Shown here in pieces: positions 28,654 through 55,936 of a DNA stretch of 64,000 bases. A model generated the notes under the pieces. The model was not told the DNA's origin. It ran no database searches and worked only from the letters and a program-made list of their open reading frames with translations. Numbering within the stretch: the stretch's first letter is position 1; each line of letters opens with the position of its first letter. Source of the DNA: Candidatus Kerfeldbacteria bacterium (GTDB lineage: Bacteria; Patescibacteriota; Patescibacteriia; UBA9570; XYC2-FULL-38-9); NCBI GenBank assembly GCA_016182555.1, contig JACPGJ010000008.1:299147-363146 (forward strand), in the 5' to 3' direction. The translations under genes were made by a program, and so were the position numbers.

Positions 28654-31600
28654 TTATTCTACCGTCACCGACTTGGCTAAATTGCGAGGTTGATCAACAT
28701 CATGGCCACGCAATACCGCCACATGATAGGCAAATAACTGCAATGGAATAATCGACAACATCGGTGTCAACATTTCTAATGTTTTGGGAATATATATCAC
28801 ATCATCTGCTAGTGCCTGCATTTCCGTATTCCCTTCTGTCGTAATCACTAAGACGCGTCCGTGGCGTGCTTTAAATTCTTGAATATTCGAAATATTTTTC
28901 TGATATACAGAATCTTCTGGTGCAATAAAAATAGAATAAAATCGATCATCAATTAACGCCAATGCACCATGTTTGGGTTCGCCGGCAGGATACCCTTCTG
29001 CATGCACATACGAAATTTCTTTCAACTTATGCGCCCCTTCCACTGCCACAGGGTAATTGTATTTTCGTCCAAGAAATAGTGCGTGATCATACGACGAATA
29101 TTTTTTCGCCATTTCTGCAATGTTGTCTGATTGTTGAAAAATGGTTTGCATTTTTTCTGGAATACCCATCAATTCTTTCGCAATGCGTTGACCGGTCACA
29201 AGTGACATATTTCGTTGACGCCCAAGCGCAAGTGTAAGTAATGCAAACATATTTAGCATACCAGTAAACACCTTTGTAGATGCAACTGCTTTTTCTGGAC
29301 CAGAATGAATATACATACCAGCATCAACTTCACGCGCAATAGTGGAACCAATCACATTCACAAGCCCAAAAGTGAATACCCCTCGTCGTTTTGCTTCTCG
29401 AAGTGAAGCAATCGTATCTGCTGTTTCACCGGATTGCGACACCAGCACCACTGCCGTTTTCTCATCCAAAACAGGTTTACGATAACGAAATTCTGAACCA
29501 AATTCAACCTCAACAGGAATTTCTGCATATTCTTCTAACATATATTCTCCTACTTTTGAAGCATACGAAGCCGTGCCGCAGGCAACAATAATAATCCGTT
29601 CAATATTCTTCCATCTTTTGATATTCTCATTAAATCCACCCAAATGCGCAATGCCATCTTCTTCAATCAAACGCCCACGCAATCCATTCAAGATAACCTC
29701 TGGCTGTTCAAGCATCTCTTTGAGCATAAAGTGTTCGTGGCCATTTTTTTCTGCTTGTGCCGCTGTCCATTCCACTCGACTCACTGGGTGTTCAATATGT
29801 TGCTGATCAAGCGTAGTGATTGTATATCCATCGCGCGTTACGGTGACCATTTCTGCTTCTTCCAAATACACTACCTCACGCGTGTGGGGTAAAATGGCAG
29901 AGAGATCTGAGGCAACAATGTATTCACCCACGTTCACAATACCAAGAATAAGAGGGCTGCCCAGGCGAGCGGCGACAATTTTATTTGGTTCACGTGAAGA
30001 AAACACTGCTAAACCATATGTACCTACCACCTCTTTGAGTGCACGACTCACGGCTTGCTCCAGCGAACATTTTTTGTAATACGCTTCTATAAGATGCGCT
30101 AGTACCTCGGTGTCTGTTGCGGTTTTAAATGTATGTTTCTCTTGAATGAGTCGCTGCTTGAGTTTGGAAAAATTTTCAATGATGCCATTGTGAATAATAA
30201 AAATTTCATCGCCGCAATCGGAATGCGGATGCGCGTTTGTGTCATTCGGTTCACCGTGAGTTGCCCACCGGGAATTGTGCGAAACTAAACCATTGGCAAT
30301 AAAATTTTCTGTTCCACTCACTTCTAAATCATAAACGTACGGAAATGTACTTCTCACTGTTTGAACTTCGGTAACTTTTTGAAATACAAGCTCCCCAGTA
30401 AATAACTGTTGTAATTGCTGAATGTAGGGGTGTGCACTCTGTTGAACAGACAGTAATTGAAAAAACTGTTCTATCGTACCTCGAGATGGGCTGCCCTTTC
30501 CATGCAATTGTCTATATGCTGCCCCACGAATACCAATTTTTTTTAATTGAGTGGCGATCTCTGTTTTATCCCACGGAAGCATAGCGTACGAGTTCGTCAC
30601 GTTCATAGCCGATTTTTGTTCTAACACTCGTTGTAATTTTTTTTGCTTCTCCGGTGCGGTGAATCCAATCTCTTTATGAAAACGTGTAATAGAATCCGCA
30701 CCACTCATGCTTACTATATACGTTGCATGCGGTCGTTTCTGCTGAATATTCTTTTTCTGAATACAGACTGAACTCATCATACCGAAACGTAATAACCACT
30801 GTTGAATTCTTCCAACAAAATCTCCATCAATCATTGCAAGAGAAACTTGACCAGCTCGAACACGAATCGTTCCTTCCGCATCAAAAATGCCTCGTAAAAA
30901 CTTGCGCAATTCTCGATCTGGTAATTGCCCAATTTCATCATAAAATGCACGTCGTCTCTCAAGAATATTTGTTTTGAGCCATGCCACCACTTCTGTACTA
31001 TTCACCTCTAATAAAAATGCAGCTACTCCTTTGAGCGGCACTATTCTTCCCGTAATACCAAATACGGTTTTTATCAATTCTCTATACTGCTCGAGAACAG
31101 CTTTTCGTGTATCTTTAAAACGCACACACCGCTCATGCGCATGGCCATCACCAATAAAATATCCTAAAATTTGCATCAATTCAGAGGATGATCGTCTTGG
31201 TAACTGCACAAAATTTCCATGAATACTATTCACTGGAGTCATGCCTTCCAGCGGAAAGGGCAAACTCAAGGTTTTTAAAAAGCGGCGCGTGGAATATTCT
31301 TGTGCATGTCTTTCTTGTCGTAAAAAATGATAAATGAAGGAGCTGGATATACCAGAAACATTTGCCAACCCACGTACATTTATCTCTTGCTGTGCCATTG
31401 TATTACGAACAACCTCTATTGTTTTTGATGTCAGTTGCCAATATCGCTGTGGTTCTTGGCATATAAAAGATATTTTTTGCCCGCGCAGAGATATTTTTTT
31501 TGGTGCACACAGAATATCCCCGGGTTGAATATCACGGGCATACTTTTCTTCTATATGACCATCACGAACAATAAGCATGCGATGATTCTCTGTAGAAGTA

Positions 31601-32007
31601 AATCTGCTGACAGAAGTACGAATTTGAAAAAGCTGCTCTGGAGCCGGATGCTTAAATAGGCGTGCCTTTTTTTTAATAAATTGATTTGTTGTTGTATCCA
31701 ATGAGAGGACATCTGCTTTCTCTGGCATATCTGCAATTTTCATCACCCGCCCGTTTGCTAATTGTATTAACGTATCTGGAACAAGGCAATGCGCAACGCC
31801 CACCGTTCCTTGCACCAAGTGCGTGTCCAACAACTCTTTTAAATTTCCAAGCTTTCCGGCCTTTTTATAGAGGTGCACCTTGCTGTTCTGTGTATCCATA
31901 ATAGCCAAACCCGCTGAATCGTAACCTCTGTATTCCATCCGCTTCAAGCCTTCAAGCAAAATAGGTTTTGCCTCTTGTTTTCCAATATAACCAATGATTC
32001 CACACAT
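28654..32007 (-). CDS. glmS: Glutamine--fructose-6-phosphate aminotransferase (GlmS) interrupted by a 505-aa intein with LAGLIDADG endonuclease domain
   Basis: N-term MCGIIGY (Cys1 nucleophile) ... GVAH | CLVPDTL...LVSHN | SRWATHG. Extein halves reconstitute the GlmS glutaminase motif; SIS domains and C-terminal ...VTVE present. Intein ~30274..31788 with LGYFIGDGHA and LRGIFDAEGT motifs. Confidence 0.93.
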   Translation of the reverse strand: MCGIIGYIGKQEAKPILLEGLKRMEYRGYDSAGLAIMDTQNSKVHLYKKAGKLGNLKELLDTHLVQGTVGVAHCLVPDTLIQLANGRVMKIADMPEKADVLSLDTTTNQFIKKKARLFKHPAPEQLFQIRTSVSRFTSTENHRMLIVRDGHIEEKYARDIQPGDILCAPKKISLRGQKISFICQEPQRYWQLTSKTIEVVRNTMAQQEINVRGLANVSGISSSFIYHFLRQERHAQEYSTRRFLKTLSLPFPLEGMTPVNSIHGNFVQLPRRSSSELMQILGYFIGDGHAHERCVRFKDTRKAVLEQYRELIKTVFGITGRIVPLKGVAAFLLEVNSTEVVAWLKTNILERRRAFYDEIGQLPDRELRKFLRGIFDAEGTIRVRAGQVSLAMIDGDFVGRIQQWLLRFGMMSSVCIQKKNIQQKRPHATYIVSMSGADSITRFHKEIGFTAPEKQKKLQRVLEQKSAMNVTNSYAMLPWDKTEIATQLKKIGIRGAAYRQLHGKGSPSRGTIEQFFQLLSVQQSAHPYIQQLQQLFTGELVFQKVTEVQTVRSTFPYVYDLEVSGTENFIANGLVSHNSRWATHGEPNDTNAHPHSDCGDEIFIIHNGIIENFSKLKQRLIQEKHTFKTATDTEVLAHLIEAYYKKCSLEQAVSRALKEVVGTYGLAVFSSREPNKIVAARLGSPLILGIVNVGEYIVASDLSAILPHTREVVYLEEAEMVTVTRDGYTITTLDQQHIEHPVSRVEWTAAQAEKNGHEHFMLKEMLEQPEVILNGLRGRLIEEDGIAHLGGFNENIKRWKNIERIIIVACGTASYASKVGEYMLEEYAEIPVEVEFGSEFRYRKPVLDEKTAVVLVSQSGETADTIASLREAKRRGVFTFGLVNVIGSTIAREVDAGMYIHSGPEKAVASTKVFTGMLNMFALLTLALGRQRNMSLVTGQRIAKELMGIPEKMQTIFQQSDNIAEMAKKYSSYDHALFLGRKYNYPVAVEGAHKLKEISYVHAEGYPAGEPKHGALALIDDRFYSIFIAPEDSVYQKNISNIQEFKARHGRVLVITTEGNTEMQALADDVIYIPKTLEMLTPMLSIIPLQLFAYHVAVLRGHDVDQPRNLAKSVTVE
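30274..31788 (-). mobile_element. GlmS intein (Cys1 ... His-Asn, +1 Ser) with double-LAGLIDADG homing endonuclease domain
   Basis: Residues 74-578 of the ORF; codons verified manually at both junctions (tgc at 31786-31788; aat/tcc at 30271-30276). Confidence 0.85.
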
Positions 32008-36680: not shown

Positions 36681-39600
36681 TTACGCACATTTCGAATAGC
36701 CGCATCCATGGCACATCATGCATCCTTCAGCCATAGCGAGTACTGATCCGCACTCTGGGCATTCTGGTGCCACTCCGGCATCAGCAATAGAACTCGCTTT
36801 CATCGAAATGGTTGTTTGATGGGTGGTTGCCGTATCTGTTTGCGTGACGGTTACGGATTCTTGCGTTTTCACTGGGCTACTGTTGCCTAATAATTCATCT
36901 GCTGTTTGCAATGGTGCTGGCGTCGCGGCAAACTGTAAATTCAACGTGCCTTGAGCAGAATTCACATGGTTAGCCAGTACCTGAGCAATCGCATCAGCAA
37001 TCGAGAGAATTTGACCATTCTTTCCCCACGTTGGTGCTGGGCCACGAATACCTTTAATTTGATCTACCACTGTTTCTACTGGAATACCAGAACGCAATGC
37101 CAAAGAAACTAAACGGCAGATCGCTTCTGATTTCGCGGCAAAAAACCCGCCCGATTTTCCAATAGTCGCAAACACCTCAAATGGTCGGCCAGCTTCATCG
37201 TGGTTAATAGTCACGAACATTGTACCGTAACCGGTTTTAATTTTATAGGTGAATCCAGGCACCATCTCTGGGCGAGAACGTGGTGATGGAGGTGTTAAAC
37301 CAGGCCCCGTGTTCATTGGTTGGGCAACTGCAGGTGCTGCAGCAGCGAATTGAGCGGGAACCGCTGTTTGTACCTCTTCTTTTTTCACTTCTTTTTTATC
37401 ACCAGCATCTTTTTTATCTAAAGATTCCAATACAGAAATATCACGAGAGCCATCACGATAATAGGTCACCCCTTTGCATCCCATTTTGTACGCTTGCATA
37501 TACAATTCTTTCACCTGTTCCATGGTATGTTCATTTGGCGCGTTCACCGTTTTGGAAATAGATGAATCAGTATATTTTTGTGCCACAGCTTGCATGTTCA
37601 CGTGTTCCATTGGACTCAGCTCCTTGGCACTCACAAAATATGCTGGTTTTTCTTCTTCTGGCACATTCGGGTGTGCTTTTCGCCACTCTTCATATAATGG
37701 ATGGTAGACAATATGTTCTCCTAAACGATCTTTCCGTTTGAAAGCAAAATCATATACCGGTTCAATACCAGAACTGACGCCGGCAAGAATACTCGTTGTA
37801 CCAGTTGGTGCTTGGGTAAGAATCACCGCATTACGCACGCCGAATTGTGCAATATCGGCTTGTAAGTCGCGCGGTAAACGTTGAATAAACTTCCCTTGCA
37901 TATATTTTTCGCTTTCAAAACCGGGAAACGCTCCTTTCTCTTTCGCAATTTCCATAGACATGCGGTAGGATTCATCGCGAATCACCCGATAGACCTCTTC
38001 ACACCATGCGACAGCTTCTTCTGATCCATAACGAATCTTCATTTTAATGAGCGCATCGCCCAAACCCATGGTACCCAAACCGGTACGACGAATTTTTTTC
38101 TGCATCTCTTCATTTTCTTTGAAGAAGTACGGAGTTGAATCAATCACGTTATCTAAGAAGCGAATCGCCGTGTGCACTGTTTCTTTGAGCGCAGCGGTAT
38201 CAAAGACCCCATCGTTCACAAATGCTGCCAAATTCACCGCACCCAAATTACACACACTCCATGCGCCAAGACCTTGTTCCCCACAATTGTGCACTATTAA
38301 CCCATTGGCTGCAAAAGAATGTGTCACTGGTTCTGTCAGATCATACACCATTTCCTGACCAAGATGCTCTAACCCGACAAATGTCGCTACAAATTTTTGT
38401 GTATATGGCCCATCGGTATATTGACTAAGTAATTTTGTTAGCTTTTGTTGTTTTGCAGATGATAAAAATCCTACGGATGTAGCAAATATCTTCAACCCGG
38501 CCTTGCTAATCACCAAATCATGTTGCGCCTGACAAGGATATGATGCTAATCCACCGCGACCATCGGGCAGTTCTCGCACTTGTTCCATGCGCCGATTCGC
38601 ATACAAACGACTCACGATACCAAAATTTAACAGTAATTGTTGCACTTCTTTCAATAGATCTTCTGAAATAGAAGTGAGCCGAATACTCACACCTTTTTCT
38701 GGTGAACCAGCGACATGTCCATCGGCAGTAAACAACCCTTGCAAAAATCCCTTCTGCATTTCTGCTGTGCCTTCCCATACTGGTTGTGGCACACGCAACT
38801 TCGATTCTACCGTCATCCCTACGTTAGTGAATATCTGATTCAACCGTTGGGATGAAATCCGAGCTTCATCACGGCCGGCAACTTCGGCAACAGTCACCGC
38901 AACAGATGAATGTTTGCCATTGGTATTGTTGGTTGAAGCGTTAATCGCACCATTAACGGCTTGAACAAGCCGCGGTGCTACTTCTCGTTTTTCTTCACCA
39001 AAAAATGACAGTACCGCCGTATGCTTAGATTGATTAAAATGACCATCACCGATAAACCAGCCTAACACTTGACCCCAAGATTGATCACCGGTGGTCCCAA
39101 AACCGCCAACGCGATCAAGTAATAATATCTGATCACCTGTTTGCAAATGCTGCGCTTCTACCCAACCACGTGCTGTGCGTACTTGATGATTGGCCGTCAG
39201 TTTGAGTTCATATCCTTCTTTGGTTTGTAATCGATACACATCTTTGATGCCCGTTTCAATAATTTGCGATGTGCGCTCCGTTGACTGTGCACCCAAACGA
39301 CTATCAATAGTCAAGTTCACTTGCTGTTGCGCCTCGTATAATGCTTTGATCGTTTTGAGCCCGTCGGTCGTTGAAACACGCGTATCGCCCGTGACGCACG
39401 GATTCACACAAATAATTTTTTCAAAATACCACGTATTTGATTCCTTGTTATAACGCTCCATAAACACCAAGCCCGGCTCACCAGATGCATGAGCAGATTC
39501 GCAAATCAAATCCCACAATGTGCGGGCTTTGATTGTTTTATAGACTTTACCTCCCCATTTTAAATCCCAATCTCCGTTCTGTTCCACGGCTTCCATGAAC

Positions 39601-40205
39601 CGATCAGAAACACAGACAGAAAGATTGGCATTCGTGACCAAACCCATGGTGCGTTTTACGGTAATAAACTCTTCAATGTCTGGGTGATCGTCATTCAGCA
39701 TTAACATCAGTGCACCGCGGCGAGATCCACCTTGAATCACCAAGCCAGTCGCATGCGAATACAACCCACCAAAAGACACCGCACCAGAAGCAGTACCATT
39801 CACTCCTTTGACATACGCACCACGTGGACGCAGTGAAGAAAGGTTCACACCCACGCCGCCACCACGAGACATAATTTCGACCATGGTTTTCACTGAATCA
39901 AAAATGCCACCGCGACTATCTTCTGGAGATGGGATGACATAACAATTATAGAATGTGAGGTCTACACCAGAACCGGCGCCAGCCAAAATACGACCACCGG
40001 GTAAAAACTTGAATCCTTCCAAAGCCTGATAAAACTTCTCTTCCCATTCTTTCTTTTTTTCAACCGTGGTTTCAATGCTGGCAATACCGCGAGCAACGCG
40101 GTGCCACATCTGTTCGGGGGTATCTTCAACACGACTCCCGTTTTCATCTTTGAGTGCGTAGCGATCAAAAAACACTTTTTGGCGCAATCCAGTAAGGTGC
40201 TCCAT
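36681..40205 (-). CDS. nrdJ: Adenosylcobalamin-dependent (class II) ribonucleotide reductase NrdJ, interrupted by a 371-aa intein
   Basis: Active-site motif split as ...ICVNP | CVTGDTRV...LIVHN | CGEQGL (NPCGEQ of class II RNR). The gene start (40203-40205) was confirmed by eye to be cat/ATG. C-terminal CxxC...CxxC tail (CPECGS...CMMCHGCGYSKCA). Intein 38286..39398 with LGWFIGDGHF and LQGLFTADGHV. Confidence 0.9.
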   Translation of the reverse strand: MEHLTGLRQKVFFDRYALKDENGSRVEDTPEQMWHRVARGIASIETTVEKKKEWEEKFYQALEGFKFLPGGRILAGAGSGVDLTFYNCYVIPSPEDSRGGIFDSVKTMVEIMSRGGGVGVNLSSLRPRGAYVKGVNGTASGAVSFGGLYSHATGLVIQGGSRRGALMLMLNDDHPDIEEFITVKRTMGLVTNANLSVCVSDRFMEAVEQNGDWDLKWGGKVYKTIKARTLWDLICESAHASGEPGLVFMERYNKESNTWYFEKIICVNPCVTGDTRVSTTDGLKTIKALYEAQQQVNLTIDSRLGAQSTERTSQIIETGIKDVYRLQTKEGYELKLTANHQVRTARGWVEAQHLQTGDQILLLDRVGGFGTTGDQSWGQVLGWFIGDGHFNQSKHTAVLSFFGEEKREVAPRLVQAVNGAINASTNNTNGKHSSVAVTVAEVAGRDEARISSQRLNQIFTNVGMTVESKLRVPQPVWEGTAEMQKGFLQGLFTADGHVAGSPEKGVSIRLTSISEDLLKEVQQLLLNFGIVSRLYANRRMEQVRELPDGRGGLASYPCQAQHDLVISKAGLKIFATSVGFLSSAKQQKLTKLLSQYTDGPYTQKFVATFVGLEHLGQEMVYDLTEPVTHSFAANGLIVHNCGEQGLGAWSVCNLGAVNLAAFVNDGVFDTAALKETVHTAIRFLDNVIDSTPYFFKENEEMQKKIRRTGLGTMGLGDALIKMKIRYGSEEAVAWCEEVYRVIRDESYRMSMEIAKEKGAFPGFESEKYMQGKFIQRLPRDLQADIAQFGVRNAVILTQAPTGTTSILAGVSSGIEPVYDFAFKRKDRLGEHIVYHPLYEEWRKAHPNVPEEEKPAYFVSAKELSPMEHVNMQAVAQKYTDSSISKTVNAPNEHTMEQVKELYMQAYKMGCKGVTYYRDGSRDISVLESLDKKDAGDKKEVKKEEVQTAVPAQFAAAAPAVAQPMNTGPGLTPPSPRSRPEMVPGFTYKIKTGYGTMFVTINHDEAGRPFEVFATIGKSGGFFAAKSEAICRLVSLALRSGIPVETVVDQIKGIRGPAPTWGKNGQILSIADAIAQVLANHVNSAQGTLNLQFAATPAPLQTADELLGNSSPVKTQESVTVTQTDTATTHQTTISMKASSIADAGVAPECPECGSVLAMAEGCMMCHGCGYSKCA
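38286..39398 (-). mobile_element. NrdJ intein at the catalytic-cysteine site, with LAGLIDADG endonuclease domain
   Basis: Residues 270-640 of the ORF; junction codons verified manually (tgc 39396-39398; aat 38286-38288, tgt 38283-38285). Confidence 0.85.
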
Positions 40206-49213: not shown

Positions 49214-52200
49214 TTAAGGAGTAATAGTATACCACGTTCCTCCTGGGTCAAATTGACTCGTTATACCATAATTATAACAAGAACATTCAGCATTTGAAAT
49301 ATCTTCACACGCATCAAATATCGCTGTCGTGTCGGTATATGCCCCTTCCCCATCATATTCTAAATGAGCATAAATGGAAGCGGTTTGGGAATCGTCAGGG
49401 TTATTCGCATCGACTTTCCACATATACGTAAAGGAATTCGCTGGGCAGAAGAAATGCTGGTTGACGGTATCCCAACAAGTTCCGCCTTCTTGGTCATAAT
49501 ATGCATTATCTTCGGGTGCAGACGGGCAATCCTGCACATGTTCTTCTCCCTCATAAACCCACGGCGTTGATCCGGCGTTCCAAGGGTCAGCTTGATCGGC
49601 AGCATAGAAGATATTGTACTGATCGGTTGGCAATGTTTGACCGAATAGATTACCCAGTGCTCCTTGCCAAGATGGCCACACGCTGGTCGTCATCGTTTTC
49701 ACATACGAACCAAATGTATCACTTTGTGGTCGTGGATAATACCCGTGTTGCGCATAAAAATCATTTGCCAAATTACTAATGGTGGTAATGTCATTCACGC
49801 GCTTGGTGTCACGAATCAATTTCTCTTGGTCAGAATTTTCACATTCCGCATGGCTCAAATTCATGTTAAACCGAACGTTATTGATCAATTGATCGGCAAT
49901 TTTCAATAGGGTCTCTTCGTCGCTAAACGTAAAAAGATAGATGTTATTATAAATTGTTCCATCTAATACATTGCTAGCAGCAACATAATAACTTAATCCA
50001 TCTTGTACCGCTTCATAGCCGTTTACTTGCAATGAAGAGACCTCCCCTGGGTTTGGTACATTTTGAGCATACCATTGGTCTGGGGTGAGGTCTTCGGTGT
50101 TTGGATACACACGAATACCAACCACCTGTTCTTCATTTTCTGGGTTCACAAACAAATATTGTCGGAAAAAATCTCCATCCGGATCAGTGGTAATAATTGG
50201 TTCTTCTGTTAAAGTAGGTAAGCCATTATCTTTACAGTAAAGCAAGTCAAAATTTTGCCGTAAATCATCACTTTCATCTGTATTCGCATATTCCCACACA
50301 TTGTCTTCTCCGCAGAAAAATACATTCACATTGGCTGTAACATCATCCACAGACCAATCTGCTTCCGTGGTGGGAGTTGCCGTGACCGTAATGCCATCTT
50401 CGGCATGATTTTCATCACCGGCCGTGACCGTTTGGGTTTCGGCATTCGGATCACTGCCTAGCTCAACCCAAGCGGTATTATTACAACGCGCATCGTCTTT
50501 ATATGGGCTCCAGGTATATTCCCAACCCATGATATTTGTGGGAATAATTTCTTGATCATCTGATGTATGCATACTCACCGTAAATGTGGTTTGTGCTCCC
50601 GATGAAGTAAACGTATACGTAGCTGTATCACCTTCCGAAGAACTCCCATTGTCATTATTGATAAGTACCAGATGATCTGGTTCACATTCGTTAGCTGCCG
50701 TCATGAAATAGATCTCTTGGGTGCCTTGCTCCACAGCCAGCGTATTGGCTTCGCTCACGATTCCGGTGTCTGTATCTGTATTACTCACGAACGTCAATCG
50801 ATATACCGTATTTGTTTTCCAGCCATCATTTGGCGTCACGGTGATTGTTTTTCCATCTGCGCTATCAACCGTAATCGCAACAACCGTATCATTAGCAATA
50901 CCTTCAGAAAAATCATCGGTTGAGTAACCATCTTCATAGTCTAATGCGTTGAGTCTGACCGTATCGGTTGCCGAATCGCCGGTCGCCAAAAAACCAGTCA
51001 TCGGTTCACTAAATACCGCACTAAATTCTCTATTTGGACAAACCTCCGTATCACCATTGACTGGATCAGAAGAAACAAATGTTGGTCTTTCTGCACAATA
51101 GGTTTCGCCAGTATCATCCACGACACATTCTCCATCACTACCACACACAGTATCTTCTGTTCCTTCCGTACATTCACCGCTAGAATCATCATCGCACACA
51201 CCATCTACACAATAATATCCCTCTTCACAATCATCGGCGGTGATACAAGATGTACCAAAATCTAACCCATTGCTCAAACAAGCATTGACCGACACCACTG
51301 CTGGTCCAGAGGTGGCGCCATACGGAACAGTGGCAGAAGATTTGCCTGTTCCCACATACGTATAGTTGTCACCACTAATATAATCGATGGTATCATCAAA
51401 CGTACTTTCCGGATCAGCACCTTCTACTACCTCATCAGTAAATAAATCTCCTGTACTTTGGCCATCGGCTGGGTTTCCAAATTGGTCACCCATAAATGTG
51501 ATGGAATCGCCATCCTGAGTTCCCTCCGCTGAAGCGGCATATCCTTCAACCGAAGAGAGCTTACACAATACCGGTACTCCGGAATCTGGCACATCGGCAC
51601 CACTGCTACACTGTGCCGTGGTAGAAAAAGTTTTATCATCATTACTATTATACCCATTATTGGAAACCACCACCGCATAAGACTGCCCTGTATCTAACGC
51701 TTCCGGTACATTGGCAATAATTTGCGTATTTGACCACCCATCGGTGCAATACAATGCCGCTTCCTCACCACCAAATGTCACCGAGGCATCGGAATCATAA
51801 GATCCAAAAAAGCAGCCGTTAATCGTTGTGGGTCCACCAGCAGGACCGGAATCTTGTACAATGCTTGTCACCACCGGTGTGCACACACCTTCTTCAGAAC
51901 AGGTAGCTTGGTCACTGCCGCAGGATTCCTGACATTGTTCATCTGTTGTACAGGTATTACAAAACTCCGCAGCTTGGCAGATACCATCTCCAGAACAGCA
52001 GCCGCTGCCGCATTCATTATTGGCGCTACAAGAAACCGAAAACTCTAATGAGTTGGAACAATATTCTGAAGCAGCAGCACAATCCACATCTCCACCTTGT
52101 GTTACGGCACGGAACCCATCTTCTCCACTCACCGCACCAGAGGCTACTTCTGTACTTACGCGCTCTGGTGTCCAGGCAGTTGCTTCTTCGGACGCAGCAA

Positions 52201-55200
52201 CACGTGTACCGGAATCCGCTTCCGTTCCATAATCATCATCACCTAAAAAGCTTGCGAGTCCTTCTTCGTCACCCAATGCTTTTCCATAGATCGTTACAGC
52301 ATCTTCTTCTGCGCCTGCTTCTGGGCTAATAGCACAAATACCGGGGTAAAAATTTTGATCAATATGATAATCCGTACCGGCTTCCGTCGAATCACCATAT
52401 TGTGTTTCTACTTGTAGTTTATAATCCTGTGTTGGTAAATCGAGCGGCATTTCAACAATAATTTGACTATCATCCCAGGTATCTCCACACGTTGCGCTAT
52501 TTGGCCAATCAGTTTCCGTTGAAGTTGCACCATCCAGCGTATTCCAGTACACATTTCCTTTTTGAGAGCCAAACATACACCCTTGAATAGTCACCCAGGT
52601 ACCCTGAATCGCACTATTTGGCGTAAAACTCTTAATCACTGGGGTACAATGTCCGGTATCGGTATTACATGTAGATGTGTTGCCACTCCCATCGCTGCAC
52701 GATGCACAGTCTGCATTGGTCGTACATGCACCAAGATCAACAATAAATTCCGCATCATCTGTTTCCAAATCCACAGCCGTTTGAATCGTTGCCGTTCCTT
52801 CATTCTCTGCATCATCTCCAACAACAAATATTTCCATCAGTGGATCATGATCATCTTCACCGGTCGCAAATTTCGCTACCGTATGATCTGCTGGGTCAGT
52901 GCTCGGAATACTCCAATTCCAACTATACGAAGAACTATCCAGTAATGCACAAGCCGGGCCATAGGCATTTCCGCTATATACTTCACTCTGACCATCCGCA
53001 TTTTTAATGGTAGATCTGCTCGGAGAAACATTCACACTCTCAATCGCACACGGCGTTGTGGTGTTATCGGTTTTGAAATGCATGGTATATGCACTTTCCA
53101 TGGCAATACCGGAGGTACCGGTAATACCAGTGGTGAGCGTCAACTGGTACCACGTATTTGGTTGTAAGTAAGATGAATCTGTCCCGGGTCCATCAGTTTG
53201 CCCATCCTGATTACTATCTTGAACTGTTCGATCAATGGCATATTGGAAACCGTAATAGTTCGTACTACCAGAAAGATATGACCACTCCGTATTCGTAAAG
53301 TGCCCATAAACCGGCAATGGTGAAAATGCACTATTGAATGTGTCTCCAGCGTTATATTGTTCTAAAAAAACCGTATCGCTATTGAATGTATCGGTGTTAA
53401 TTTGTTGGTCAAACAGTACCCCAAGAGCAGCATTGATACACGCCCGTTCTTCATTCGGTTGTGGATTTGGTGAAGGGTACACATCTGCTTCGGCATCGCA
53501 AGAATTTAATTCGGCAACACGTGGCCCAGCACTGCACGGGAAATTGTATTCACGACCATTACTACTCAAACCGGTATCGCCATCATAAATTGTTACCCAA
53601 TAATCACCAGGGGTCATGGATTCATTTGTCGTGCCTTGAATAGATGTATCCGTCCAGTCACCGGAAGGAGTTTCCGGATGAAAATAGACGCTAGAATCTG
53701 CCAAAGAAGTAAAGGGTACCTCGCTTCCACCTTGAGCAGTTCCAAAACCATCGCCGGTAATGGTAAAGCTGGCTCCAGCGGAATTATCACAACTGGGCAC
53801 AATTTCACATAAGTTCGGCCGAACATTATCTGAGTAGGTAAATTTTTGAAGATCCGAATAATGGCCATCTGCATGAATCACCTGGATATAGCCCACATCA
53901 CCCGTAACCCATTGGTGTTCTCCGGTGGCATCAGTATAAGTTTCTGGTGCAATCGCCACAATTTCATCATTGGTCCATACATTACCGCAGGCCGTTGGTT
54001 GCGCCATGGTGGATGTGCGAGTACCATCCAAGGAACGCATAATCACGGTGCCAGGCGTATCACCATAATTATCTCCACTCATCGTAATATATTGACCAAC
54101 TGCCCCATCACTTGGATCTACGGATTGAATATACGGGCTATACACATCAACTTCAGAAGATGATGGGTCACTTTCTTCTCCAGCCACACTCACGCGCAGC
54201 GTGGAATCATTCGTGCCGACTGGCGTACGCAATGATAATTGATCGCTGCGTTGATCTGCTTCATCCATACAAATATCTCCAGCCGACGTATTATCTTGCA
54301 TGTTACCGTAATGATCGGTATTGAAACAGGTATTCACGGTTTCTGCGGCGTAAATATTGCCATCTTGAAAAATGACCTCGGCATGCGGCGCCAAATACAA
54401 ACCTGATATGGCGAGTGTGCCTTGGCCATATTCCACGCAAACACCGGCTTCGCAGCTACCAGAGCCACATTCGGTATTGGTTGTACAACTTTGACCGCTG
54501 TGTAAGCCGGCATAGTCACCATAATAATCTCCACCAGGATTCACCGATTCAATCACCGGTGTACAGGAAGCATTATCTCCAGTTTCCCATGTGATGGGGT
54601 CTTCAGTTGCACCCGCGGCCTCATCAAAACCATAAAAGTTATCCACGGTGGAACCTTCAGCAATACCGTCACCATCGCCATCGAGTGCGTTTCCACAATA
54701 ATCGGTAAGCGCACCTGCAAAATCGTTACTGGCATCGCCACCATATAATCGCGTACTATAATATGAAAAACTATTCAACGTGGTTTCTGGTCGAACTTGA
54801 GCGTAATCAAAATCTCCACCGAAACTCCACCCTTTTAATGCGAGTGGGTCCGCCCAATCTGGTGCAAATGGCACATCTGGTGTACCGGCGCTATCTAAGA
54901 CAAATGATTGATCATCGTTGAATGTGGACGTCAACATTGGCTCAGAAAAATCGAAGTTAATCACTGTATTCGTACAGACCTCTGCTTCACCATCTGCCGG
55001 AAATGGTGAATTGGAATGAACTTGTACTGTTGGTGGTGTCTCATCTTTTTCACTACCTGTCGTAAACTGCCAAATATAGGAAGAGGTGAGCGCCAACCGA
55101 TCATCAATACCATCATCTGGCGTATCGTCATAACTGAATACACCATCAGTTCCACCCACAATAACCGCTTCATACGTGGTGTTTATTTCTAAATCTGTAT

Positions 55201-55936
55201 CTGGAACAAAATTGAATGTCGAGGTGGTGTCCCCCGGACCAAATGCAATAACGCCAGCAACCGTATCACCCACACAGCGGTTTTCCTGACACAAGCCTGA
55301 CCCACAAACATTATTACTTGAACATTCCCCGCCGTCTGCTACACCCCCAGGAATATGGAGGTACCAGGTATCTGGTGTCACGGTACTGGTATCAATATCT
55401 TTGCTCATGCGTACTTGAACGGCACAGAGGGAAGCACCCGTTTCTCCTGATTCCGGATCTGTAGACAACACATAAAAACTGGAATCGCTGGTGGGAATAT
55501 ACCCACCACCACTCGTGCCGCTAGCATCATCTATAGACCCACCAGTTGCATCACTAAAAAACCCAATAAGCCAGAGCACCAGGCCCCATGAGACCATAAT
55601 AATCACCAGGCCAATCCCCGCATTGCGTAATACCGCCTTGGCTTTGTTCACTTTATCTGGGTTACCGGCGGAGGTCAGCCACATGTAGCCGCCATAGATA
55701 ATAAAAATAACCGCCACCAAGGCCATGAGCGATAGAGCAACATTCACAATATCTACCACGATGGAAATAATATCGTTATTTCCTAAAGAGCTGGCAATAC
55801 CGGCGTAATCTGTTGTTATTTGGGCGTATGCAGGAGTGACAGTTGCAAATATTCCGAAAAGAAAAAAGCTCATGGCGGTAAAACAACCACGCATGGCTTT
55901 TTTCAGATTTCTATTTTTCGGAAGACGTTCCCGCAT
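49214..55936 (-). CDS. Giant (2240 aa) cysteine-rich surface protein: signal peptide + pilin-like double-TM N-domain, then repeated PSI-like Cys modules each followed by IPT/TIG-like domains
   Basis: SP MRGCFTAMSFFLFGIFATVTPAYA; two hydrophobic helices flanking YGGYMWLTSAGNPDKVNKAKAVLRNAGIG (TrbC/VirB2- or T4SS-pilin-like topology). At least five CxxxxCGSGxC modules followed by TPVI(x)S(x)xP...G...VTIxG..FG segments. Confidence 0.7.
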   Translation of the reverse strand: MRERLPKNRNLKKAMRGCFTAMSFFLFGIFATVTPAYAQITTDYAGIASSLGNNDIISIVVDIVNVALSLMALVAVIFIIYGGYMWLTSAGNPDKVNKAKAVLRNAGIGLVIIMVSWGLVLWLIGFFSDATGGSIDDASGTSGGGYIPTSDSSFYVLSTDPESGETGASLCAVQVRMSKDIDTSTVTPDTWYLHIPGGVADGGECSSNNVCGSGLCQENRCVGDTVAGVIAFGPGDTTSTFNFVPDTDLEINTTYEAVIVGGTDGVFSYDDTPDDGIDDRLALTSSYIWQFTTGSEKDETPPTVQVHSNSPFPADGEAEVCTNTVINFDFSEPMLTSTFNDDQSFVLDSAGTPDVPFAPDWADPLALKGWSFGGDFDYAQVRPETTLNSFSYYSTRLYGGDASNDFAGALTDYCGNALDGDGDGIAEGSTVDNFYGFDEAAGATEDPITWETGDNASCTPVIESVNPGGDYYGDYAGLHSGQSCTTNTECGSGSCEAGVCVEYGQGTLAISGLYLAPHAEVIFQDGNIYAAETVNTCFNTDHYGNMQDNTSAGDICMDEADQRSDQLSLRTPVGTNDSTLRVSVAGEESDPSSSEVDVYSPYIQSVDPSDGAVGQYITMSGDNYGDTPGTVIMRSLDGTRTSTMAQPTACGNVWTNDEIVAIAPETYTDATGEHQWVTGDVGYIQVIHADGHYSDLQKFTYSDNVRPNLCEIVPSCDNSAGASFTITGDGFGTAQGGSEVPFTSLADSSVYFHPETPSGDWTDTSIQGTTNESMTPGDYWVTIYDGDTGLSSNGREYNFPCSAGPRVAELNSCDAEADVYPSPNPQPNEERACINAALGVLFDQQINTDTFNSDTVFLEQYNAGDTFNSAFSPLPVYGHFTNTEWSYLSGSTNYYGFQYAIDRTVQDSNQDGQTDGPGTDSSYLQPNTWYQLTLTTGITGTSGIAMESAYTMHFKTDNTTTPCAIESVNVSPSRSTIKNADGQSEVYSGNAYGPACALLDSSSYSWNWSIPSTDPADHTVAKFATGEDDHDPLMEIFVVGDDAENEGTATIQTAVDLETDDAEFIVDLGACTTNADCASCSDGSGNTSTCNTDTGHCTPVIKSFTPNSAIQGTWVTIQGCMFGSQKGNVYWNTLDGATSTETDWPNSATCGDTWDDSQIIVEMPLDLPTQDYKLQVETQYGDSTEAGTDYHIDQNFYPGICAISPEAGAEEDAVTIYGKALGDEEGLASFLGDDDYGTEADSGTRVAASEEATAWTPERVSTEVASGAVSGEDGFRAVTQGGDVDCAAASEYCSNSLEFSVSCSANNECGSGCCSGDGICQAAEFCNTCTTDEQCQESCGSDQATCSEEGVCTPVVTSIVQDSGPAGGPTTINGCFFGSYDSDASVTFGGEEAALYCTDGWSNTQIIANVPEALDTGQSYAVVVSNNGYNSNDDKTFSTTAQCSSGADVPDSGVPVLCKLSSVEGYAASAEGTQDGDSITFMGDQFGNPADGQSTGDLFTDEVVEGADPESTFDDTIDYISGDNYTYVGTGKSSATVPYGATSGPAVVSVNACLSNGLDFGTSCITADDCEEGYYCVDGVCDDDSSGECTEGTEDTVCGSDGECVVDDTGETYCAERPTFVSSDPVNGDTEVCPNREFSAVFSEPMTGFLATGDSATDTVRLNALDYEDGYSTDDFSEGIANDTVVAITVDSADGKTITVTPNDGWKTNTVYRLTFVSNTDTDTGIVSEANTLAVEQGTQEIYFMTAANECEPDHLVLINNDNGSSSEGDTATYTFTSSGAQTTFTVSMHTSDDQEIIPTNIMGWEYTWSPYKDDARCNNTAWVELGSDPNAETQTVTAGDENHAEDGITVTATPTTEADWSVDDVTANVNVFFCGEDNVWEYANTDESDDLRQNFDLLYCKDNGLPTLTEEPIITTDPDGDFFRQYLFVNPENEEQVVGIRVYPNTEDLTPDQWYAQNVPNPGEVSSLQVNGYEAVQDGLSYYVAASNVLDGTIYNNIYLFTFSDEETLLKIADQLINNVRFNMNLSHAECENSDQEKLIRDTKRVNDITTISNLANDFYAQHGYYPRPQSDTFGSYVKTMTTSVWPSWQGALGNLFGQTLPTDQYNIFYAADQADPWNAGSTPWVYEGEEHVQDCPSAPEDNAYYDQEGGTCWDTVNQHFFCPANSFTYMWKVDANNPDDSQTASIYAHLEYDGEGAYTDTTAIFDACEDISNAECSCYNYGITSQFDPGGTWYTITP

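Follow-up and report, generated by a model that had tools for sequence, protein, structure and literature searches.

A LAGLIDADG intein at the conserved GF-6P site of GlmS in a Kerfeldbacteria-like bacterium

Among described inteins, the counterpart of the element analysed here is that of the Methanocaldococcus jannaschii glutamine--fructose-6-phosphate aminotransferase (GlmS), which we take to be the InBase entry "Mja GF-6P" of 499 amino acids (aa); its backing in the present work is the set of Methanocaldococcus loci found in a genome scan. Characterised inteins of other host proteins (VMA, DNA polymerase, ribonucleotide reductase), namely TliVMA (7qss/7qsu), PI-PkoII/PI-TkoII (2cw7/2cw8), PI-PfuI (1dq3) and PI-SceI (1vde/1lws), also have a Hint domain that is interrupted by a two-motif LAGLIDADG nuclease, and a further DNA-contacting module separates this nuclease from Hint-N. 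This accessory module is the DNA-recognition region in PI-SceI and the "stirrup" domain in PI-PfuI. The 505-aa insert described here follows the same plan. It lies in the GlmS precursor encoded by a stretch of 64,000 nucleotides (nt) of a Candidatus Kerfeldbacteria bacterium (contig JACPGJ010000008.1, assembly GCA_016182555.1, positions 299,147-363,146; hereafter the window), and its accessory module is a helix-turn-helix (HTH) domain of XRE/Cro type. Unlike the characterised inteins, to which it is 15-22% identical, it carries a further domain of four helices that separates the nuclease from Hint-C. On balance, the insert is probably a class-1 LAGLIDADG intein of a family with a fixed site in GlmS (the Methanocaldococcus "GF-6P" site), residing in a Kerfeldbacteria-like member of the Patescibacteria, that splices, can home and was acquired horizontally, the activities being read from motifs and fold.

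The host protein is GlmS. The MCGIIGY start, the class-II GATase domain, two SIS domains and the C-terminal KSVTVE are all present, the NLAKSVTVE terminus is the same as in GlmS relatives, and Pfam assigns GATase_6/7 and SIS (2.5e-48, two stretches) to the flanks of the insert. The initial annotation had proposed a 1117-aa GlmS frame whose residues 74-578 form an intein that starts with Cys, ends with His-Asn followed by Ser, and separates GVAH from SRWATHG. Translation reproduces its coordinates to the base (Table 1): the codon of Cys74 occupies 31786-31788, that of Asn578 30274-30276 and that of Ser579 30271..30273, and the junctions, in which "/" marks the limits of the insert, read directly as ...QGTVGVAH/CLVPDTLIQL... 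and ...FIANGLVSHN/SRWATHGEPN... The insert is in frame, and there is no stop codon across 3351 nt. Its removal yields a product of 612 aa that aligns in one stretch with the glutaminase domain of Escherichia coli GlmS (1xff, E 1.3e-61). The contiguity of the exteins expected by the initial annotation is thus observed: the junction is free of gaps, the rejoined gtvgvahSRWATHGEP standing against GGTGIAHTRWATHGEP of the E. coli protein. Pfam and this alignment together locate the insertion, as had been stated, in the N-terminal nucleophile (Ntn) glutaminase domain inside the GxxH/(T)RWATHG block, where His71 and Thr72 (E. coli numbering) flank it. The remainder of the glutaminase domain and the two SIS domains make up the C-extein. 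GlmS proteins of about 610 aa match the extein-only product over 100% of its length, with 69-74% identity. For annotation purposes, glmS is intact though nearly double its usual length, and the mature enzyme should be predicted at 612 aa. Note that a motif of the isomerase domain (residues about 1010-1025) reads GYPAGEPKHGALALID, while most GlmS proteins have GYAAGEMKHGPIALID; the "GEPKHGA" variant is also found in a few of the closest GlmS relatives (P0051, P0055), which identifies it as a feature of the lineage and not as damage.

The origin of the window in a metagenome-type assembly raises the question of whether the insert is non-functional, either as an assembly chimera or as a non-splicing domain that leaves glmS a pseudogene. 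This hardly merits credence. The insertion is exactly in frame over an uninterrupted reading frame, its boundaries coincide to the residue with the site occupied in 72 other genomes, all catalytic residues are present, and the exteins keep the catalytic motifs of GlmS together with the level of identity to relatives given above. Furthermore, an identical 1117-aa protein is encoded on a Logan contig (SRR12113422, 30,650 nt) that was assembled independently, which argues against an assembly artefact.

On all sequence and structure criteria tested, the insert is a class-1 intein with a LAGLIDADG homing endonuclease domain, its splicing and DNA cleavage being predicted. Pfam detects in it Intein_splicing (3.9e-22, split over residues 81-578) and LAGLIDADG_3 (6.1e-22 in two stretches; 3.8e-23 in a second Pfam scan). 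All class-1 residues are found: Cys1, Thr66-x-x-His69 of block B, Asp487 of block F (VYDLEV), His504-Asn505 and the +1 Ser. The two LAGLIDADG motifs listed in the initial annotation are present at intein residues 207-216 (LGYFIGDGHA, with the acidic Asp214 followed by Gly) and 298-307 (LRGIFDAEGT, with the acidic Glu305 followed by Gly). An alignment of 40 sequences of relatives shows C1, T66, H69, G213, D214, G215, D303, A304, E305, G306, D487, N495, H504 and N505 to be near-invariant. The AlphaFold2 model of the intein, built from this alignment, has a mean predicted local distance difference test (pLDDT) of 92.6 and a predicted template modelling score (pTM) of 0.91. Its N- and C-terminal segments form the Hint fold, between which the nuclease adopts the pseudo-dimeric alpha-beta-beta-alpha-beta-beta-alpha LAGLIDADG fold, with a pLDDT mostly >90, and superposes on I-DmoI and PI-PfuI. 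Structural comparison of the intein model gave values (stated here without unit) of 29.3 with the TliVMA intein, 27.7 with PI-PkoII, 24.3 with PI-PfuI, about 19-22 with mini-inteins and the hedgehog Hint domain, and 16.7 with I-DmoI. The homing endonuclease had been called intact in the initial annotation; conserved motifs and fold agree with this as far as the domain is concerned, while nuclease activity is a prediction.

Two helical domains flank the nuclease. The first is matched by the XRE/Cro-C1 HTH proteins C.AhdI and P22 c2 (8.5 and 8.3, again without unit, for 61-64 aligned residues), and the segment of the relatives that corresponds to residues 112-185 of the window intein is recognised by Pfam as HTH_3/HTH_31 in six of the seven tested, with scores of 6.5e-13 in Methanocaldococcus and 6.7e-08 in the nearest relative (L034). 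PI-SceI and PI-PfuI have extra DNA-contact modules at the same position. The XRE-type HTH is probably an accessory DNA-binding domain that extends recognition of the DNA during homing. The second of the two domains adjoins Hint-C. It is kept in two relatives devoid of the nuclease (P0009, P0016) and is absent from Omnitrophota inteins of 441-443 aa; its position and its survival after nuclease loss suggest a role in folding or splicing, not in DNA cleavage.

Relatives at the same site were searched for with the C-terminal junction His-Asn-x-Arg-Trp-Ala-Thr-His-Gly, back-translated into a degenerate DNA pattern that intein-less glmS genes cannot match. The pattern has a single match in the window and none in 100 shuffles. 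A scan of 185,579 species-representative genomes, one per GTDB species, returned 85 loci, 72 of which are inteins at the same GlmS site; this number is a lower bound because the pattern demands a terminal His-Asn and an exact RWATHG. The other 13 matches (Providencia, Streptomyces, Nocardioides and others) were rejected as chance occurrences outside glmS inteins. The consensus junctions of the 72 are G-x-[GA]-H/C-L-x-P-[DE]-T and [STQN]-H-N/[SC]-R-W-A-T-H-G. Cys1 and the terminal His-Asn are found in 72/72 homologues and the +1 residue is Ser in 70 and Cys in 2, so that the junction residues on which the initial annotation relied are conserved. The domain order, including the HTH segment, is common to the whole family. 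Full-length relatives have 495-514 aa, and the window intein carries no deletion relative to them. Shortened inteins of 144-250 aa that have lost the LAGLIDADG domain also occupy the site (L063, L020, L042, L054, P0009, P0016); they show the decay expected from the homing cycle inside the family.

The hosts of this family are almost evenly divided between the two domains of life, a few taxon labels on short contigs being possible binning errors. Thirty-seven are labelled archaeal (Methanocaldococcus, including sp. 28A, Nitrososphaerota/Thaumarchaeota, Micrarchaeota, Hadarchaeota, Thermoplasmata, Archaeoglobaceae, Bathyarchaeia and Aenigmatarchaeota) and 35 bacterial (Omnitrophota, Saccharibacteria and other Patescibacteria, Blastocatellia/Acidobacteriota, Chloroflexi/Anaerolineae, Elusimicrobia, Abditibacteriales and a few unclassified). 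The species-representative scan thus indicates that uncultivated bacteria carry the GlmS intein as commonly as archaea do. It had been regarded in the initial annotation as rare in bacteria. This holds for its frequency, with 35 bacterial-labelled genomes among all those scanned, but understates its distribution: the GlmS intein is rare, yet not confined to archaea. A scan of viral contigs with the junction pattern gave zero matches and hence no evidence of a viral vector. A search of the literature on GlmS/GF-6P inteins and on inteins of the candidate phyla radiation found no paper on bacterial GlmS inteins in the library searched, although databases already carry automatic annotation of such proteins. 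The novelty here is modest and lies in the host lineage, in the very divergent sequence, in the evidence on how common the GlmS intein is among uncultivated bacteria and in the use of Ser versus Ile/Thr as a +1 marker.

This marker emerges from the comparison with empty alleles. The 120 best matches to the GlmS extein are 57-74% identical to it, and those that are named come from Candidatus Kerfeldbacteria or other Patescibacteria. All 120 have about 587-624 aa and, therefore, none carries the intein. In the 119 intein-less relatives whose motif could be read, Ser does not occur at the position equivalent to +1, where the residue is Ile in 53 and Thr in 66; Ile is found throughout the 24 closest, whose motif reads GIGH-I-RWATHG. 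Only 9 of the 612 extein positions have a residue that is found in none of the 120 relatives, and Ser74 of the spliced product is among them. The presence of Ser in 70 of the 72 intein alleles (Cys in the other two) and of Ile or Thr in the empty relatives ties the +1 Ser to the intein. It may either have arrived by co-conversion at invasion or have been required for splicing and selected afterwards; Ile cannot serve as a nucleophile. The +1 Ser could therefore mark present or past occupancy by an intein, co-conversion included, where empty alleles have Ile or Thr.

The sequence of the intein itself may point elsewhere than to its host. In a neighbour-joining tree of 49 full-length inteins from the same site (Kimura distance, 200 bootstraps), the window intein is sister to a clade from Acidobacteriota, Chloroflexi, Elusimicrobia and an Omnitrophota member (L007) in 191/200 bootstraps, and groups with the other Patescibacteria-type inteins in only 9/200. 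The extein, unlike the intein, is closest to GlmS of Patescibacteria. The G+C content at third codon positions (GC3) is 0.30 in the intein compared to 0.395 +/- 0.041 in the other genes of the window. Intein-less relatives, placement in the tree among other phyla and GC3 together favour horizontal acquisition from another phylum, a conclusion that is tentative.

Several observations weigh against the reading of a horizontally acquired, splicing and homing-competent intein. Its donor clade is tentative because the tree uses simple distances on sequences that are 30-43% identical. In composition the intein deviates only mildly, its codon-usage distance of 0.110 lying at the upper edge of the range of the other window genes but inside it (maximum 0.111). 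The assignment of the host as Kerfeldbacteria-like comes from the GlmS extein alone. Both splicing and DNA cleavage are deduced from motifs and fold. No full-length relative of the intein with more than 43% identity is present in the collections searched: the best full-length match among 5.8 billion protein clusters, from an Acidobacteriota metagenome-assembled genome (MAG), is 42% identical (a fragment of 280 aa reaches 48% over part of the sequence), the best matches in the species-representative genomes lie at 41-43% (BLASTP over residues 1-505: L034 42.6%, L052 41.6%; lowest E 5e-136), and an exhaustive HMMER pass over 1.84 billion representatives gave at most 37-40%, with 53 matches at E <= 1e-30. 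Finally, the HTH segment of the window intein has no Pfam HTH_3 match, unlike that of six of its seven aligned relatives; it is too diverged, which from the sequence could correspond to decay of the part of the protein devoted to DNA binding and homing.

The last two observations fit a scenario in which splicing is retained and the endonuclease is dead or dying, the intein having become a fixed passenger that is inherited vertically and, late in its homing cycle, no longer homes. The absence of a close copy from both large protein collections counts against recent spread, and the nuclease-less members indicate that decay is common in the GlmS intein family. Such a scenario is possible but rather doubtful, given that both acidic residues of the LAGLIDADG motifs (D214, E305) are kept, that the whole nuclease domain is modelled with high confidence and superposes on known enzymes, that nothing is deleted in comparison to full-length relatives, and that none of the 120 closest GlmS relatives has the intein, implying that its gain is not ancient.

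If the intein is active as favoured here, the 1117-aa precursor would be translated and Cys74 (intein Cys1) would attack the His73-Cys74 peptide bond in an N-S acyl shift assisted by Thr66 and His69 of block B. Transesterification would then move the N-extein to Ser579 (+1), cyclisation of Asn578, with the help of His577 and of Asp487 of block F, would free the intein, and an O-N shift would give the 612-aa GlmS with the sequence ...GVAH-SRWATHG... By virtue of its LAGLIDADG domain (Asp214/Glu305), the freed intein or the precursor may cleave DNA site-specifically, the HTH probably helping to bind DNA. The enzyme would cut intein-less glmS at the coding sequence of the conserved GxGH(T/I)RWATHG (a GGTATTGGTCAT/ATTCGTTGGGCAACTCACGG-like site), and repair would copy the intein in. 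None of this would be a biological surprise; it is ordinary intein behaviour. Protein engineers and meganuclease developers could find tools in a compact, confidently modelled intein with Ser at +1 and in a LAGLIDADG enzyme whose predicted target is a highly conserved glmS sequence of 30 bp.

The position of the insertion has a consequence for the host. Arg73 and Trp74 of E. coli GlmS bind glutamine and gate the ammonia channel. The intein is inserted one residue ahead of this glutamine-binding segment, so that the precursor should have no glutaminase activity and the supply of glucosamine-6-phosphate would depend on splicing. An alternative reading is an intein co-opted as a post-translational switch, in which conditional splicing in response to redox state, temperature or a ligand gates GlmS and hence the peptidoglycan precursors. 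The necessary inactivity of the precursor before splicing is in line with this, as is a second intein at the catalytic Cys of the ribonucleotide reductase encoded 4.7 kb away from glmS. Other inteins situated at active sites have likewise been proposed to splice conditionally (Novikova et al. 2016, PMC4760082, whose main text does not mention GlmS). We nevertheless regard the switch as very improbable. There is no hint of a sensor in the sequence, and a sporadic distribution fits a parasite better than a regulator. Selfish inteins moreover generally reside in conserved active-site motifs, since these present the nuclease with a conserved target.

The ribonucleotide reductase intein is distinct from that of GlmS. 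It precedes the Cys of the conserved NPCGE motif, which is its +1 residue. That the two inteins of the window are copies of each other was rejected: their identity is only 25% and is confined to the nuclease domain, from which it follows that they are independent invasions. The genes of the window are mostly co-oriented: of the 47 ORFs (open reading frames) with 150 aa or more and no overlap with a longer one, 44 are on the minus strand. A tRNA scan and an Rfam search of the window found no tRNA gene and no RNA family, and hence no glmS ribozyme. The longest protein listed in Table 1, of 2240 aa, looks like a giant surface or pilus-associated protein; an fn3-containing ORF is found near its gene.

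Table 1. Positions in the window of the glmS precursor, the parts of its intein and other features
Feature	Residues and content	Position	Strand	Basis or remark
glmS precursor ORF	1117 aa + stop	28654..32007	minus	ORF list, Pfam, PDB GlmS matches at 3.5e-139
N-extein	GlmS residues 1-73 (MCGIIGY...GTVGVAH), includes Ntn nucleophile Cys2	31789..32007	minus	aligns to E. coli GlmS 1-71
Intein	505 aa, precursor residues 74-578, Cys1 to His504-Asn505	30274..31788	minus	
C-extein	residues 579-1117 + stop, first residue Ser579 of SRWATHG, predicted +1 nucleophile	28654..30273	minus	aligns to E. coli GlmS 72-608
Hint-N half	intein residues 1-118, block A Cys1 and block B Thr66-x-x-His69	31435..31788	minus	
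Four-helix HTH domain, XRE/Cro-C1 type	intein residues about 119-176	31261..31434	minus	
LAGLIDADG domain	intein residues about 200-396	30601..31191	minus	
Second four-helix domain	intein residues about 405-465	30394..30576	minus	model helices 408-417, 422-428, 436-446, 450-464
Hint-C	intein residues 466-505, block F VYDLEV (Asp487), block G NGLVSHN	30274..30393	minus	
Ribonucleotide reductase ORF	1174 aa, Ribonuc_red_lgN/lgC + TSCPD	36681..40205	minus	carries the second intein
Second intein	371 aa, Intein_splicing + LAGLIDADG_3	38286..39398	minus	...ICVNP/CVTGDTRV...GLIVHN/CGEQGLG
2240-aa ORF	N-terminal T4SS_pilin, TIG, Big_5 Ig-like domains	49214..55936	minus	
fn3-containing ORF	1194 aa	59348..62932		

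Comparison with the known GlmS intein site shows how far the likeness extends. The intein of Methanocaldococcus sp. 28A (L082, 499 aa compared to 505 aa here) interrupts GlmS at the same point, GIGH/CLHPDTYI...NHN/SRWATHG, with the same Cys1, His-Asn and +1 Ser. It has the same succession of Hint-N, XRE-type HTH, LAGLIDADG, helical domain and Hint-C, and aligns end to end with the window intein (residues 1-505, 29.7% identity, E 6e-63, BLASTP). The kinship with the M. jannaschii GF-6P intein suggested in the initial annotation is thus borne out by a congener, allele and architecture being the same. The differences are that the host here is a bacterium of the Patescibacteria, not a methanogen, that the Methanocaldococcus HTH is a textbook HTH_3 while that of the window intein is beyond Pfam detection, and that the window intein belongs in the neighbour-joining tree to a mostly bacterial cluster, apart from the Methanocaldococcus/Thermoplasmata cluster. 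The nearest relatives, 38-43% identical over the full length, are GlmS inteins of bacterial MAGs (HGW-Chloroflexi-1, L034; Acidobacteriota/Blastocatellia, L052/L028/L045 and P0001; Elusimicrobia, Omnitrophota, Saccharibacteria), which share the site and the architecture. Kerfeldbacteria-like hosts are absent among the bacterial GlmS inteins found, and four of these (L054, L063, P0009, P0016) are without a nuclease domain.

Next to the GlmS inteins come those of RadA and eRF1 from DPANN archaea (P0006-P0047; hosts in Pacearchaeota, Micrarchaeota, Woesearchaeota, Aenigmatarchaeota and Nanoarchaeota), which are 22-29% identical across all 505 aa. They share the set Intein_splicing, HTH_3/HTH_19 and LAGLIDADG_3, and differ by their host genes, insertion sites and archaeal hosts. 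This common domain set makes it appear that one intein lineage has colonised several host genes. It is conceivable, though we hold it to be an improbable extension, that a single Hint/XRE-HTH/LAGLIDADG/helical family crosses the boundary between archaea and bacteria, mainly in uncultivated and often ultra-small or episymbiotic lineages (DPANN, Patescibacteria, Omnitrophota, Elusimicrobia), hopping between glmS, radA and eRF1, and that its GlmS copy, at the first residue of the glutamine-binding loop, might make the synthesis of cell-wall precursors conditional on splicing. For the GlmS (GF-6P) intein as such, whose known hosts were a few methanogens, the comparison widens the range to 72 or more species-level genomes, of which roughly half bear bacterial labels, and the present locus adds a Kerfeldbacteria-like host.

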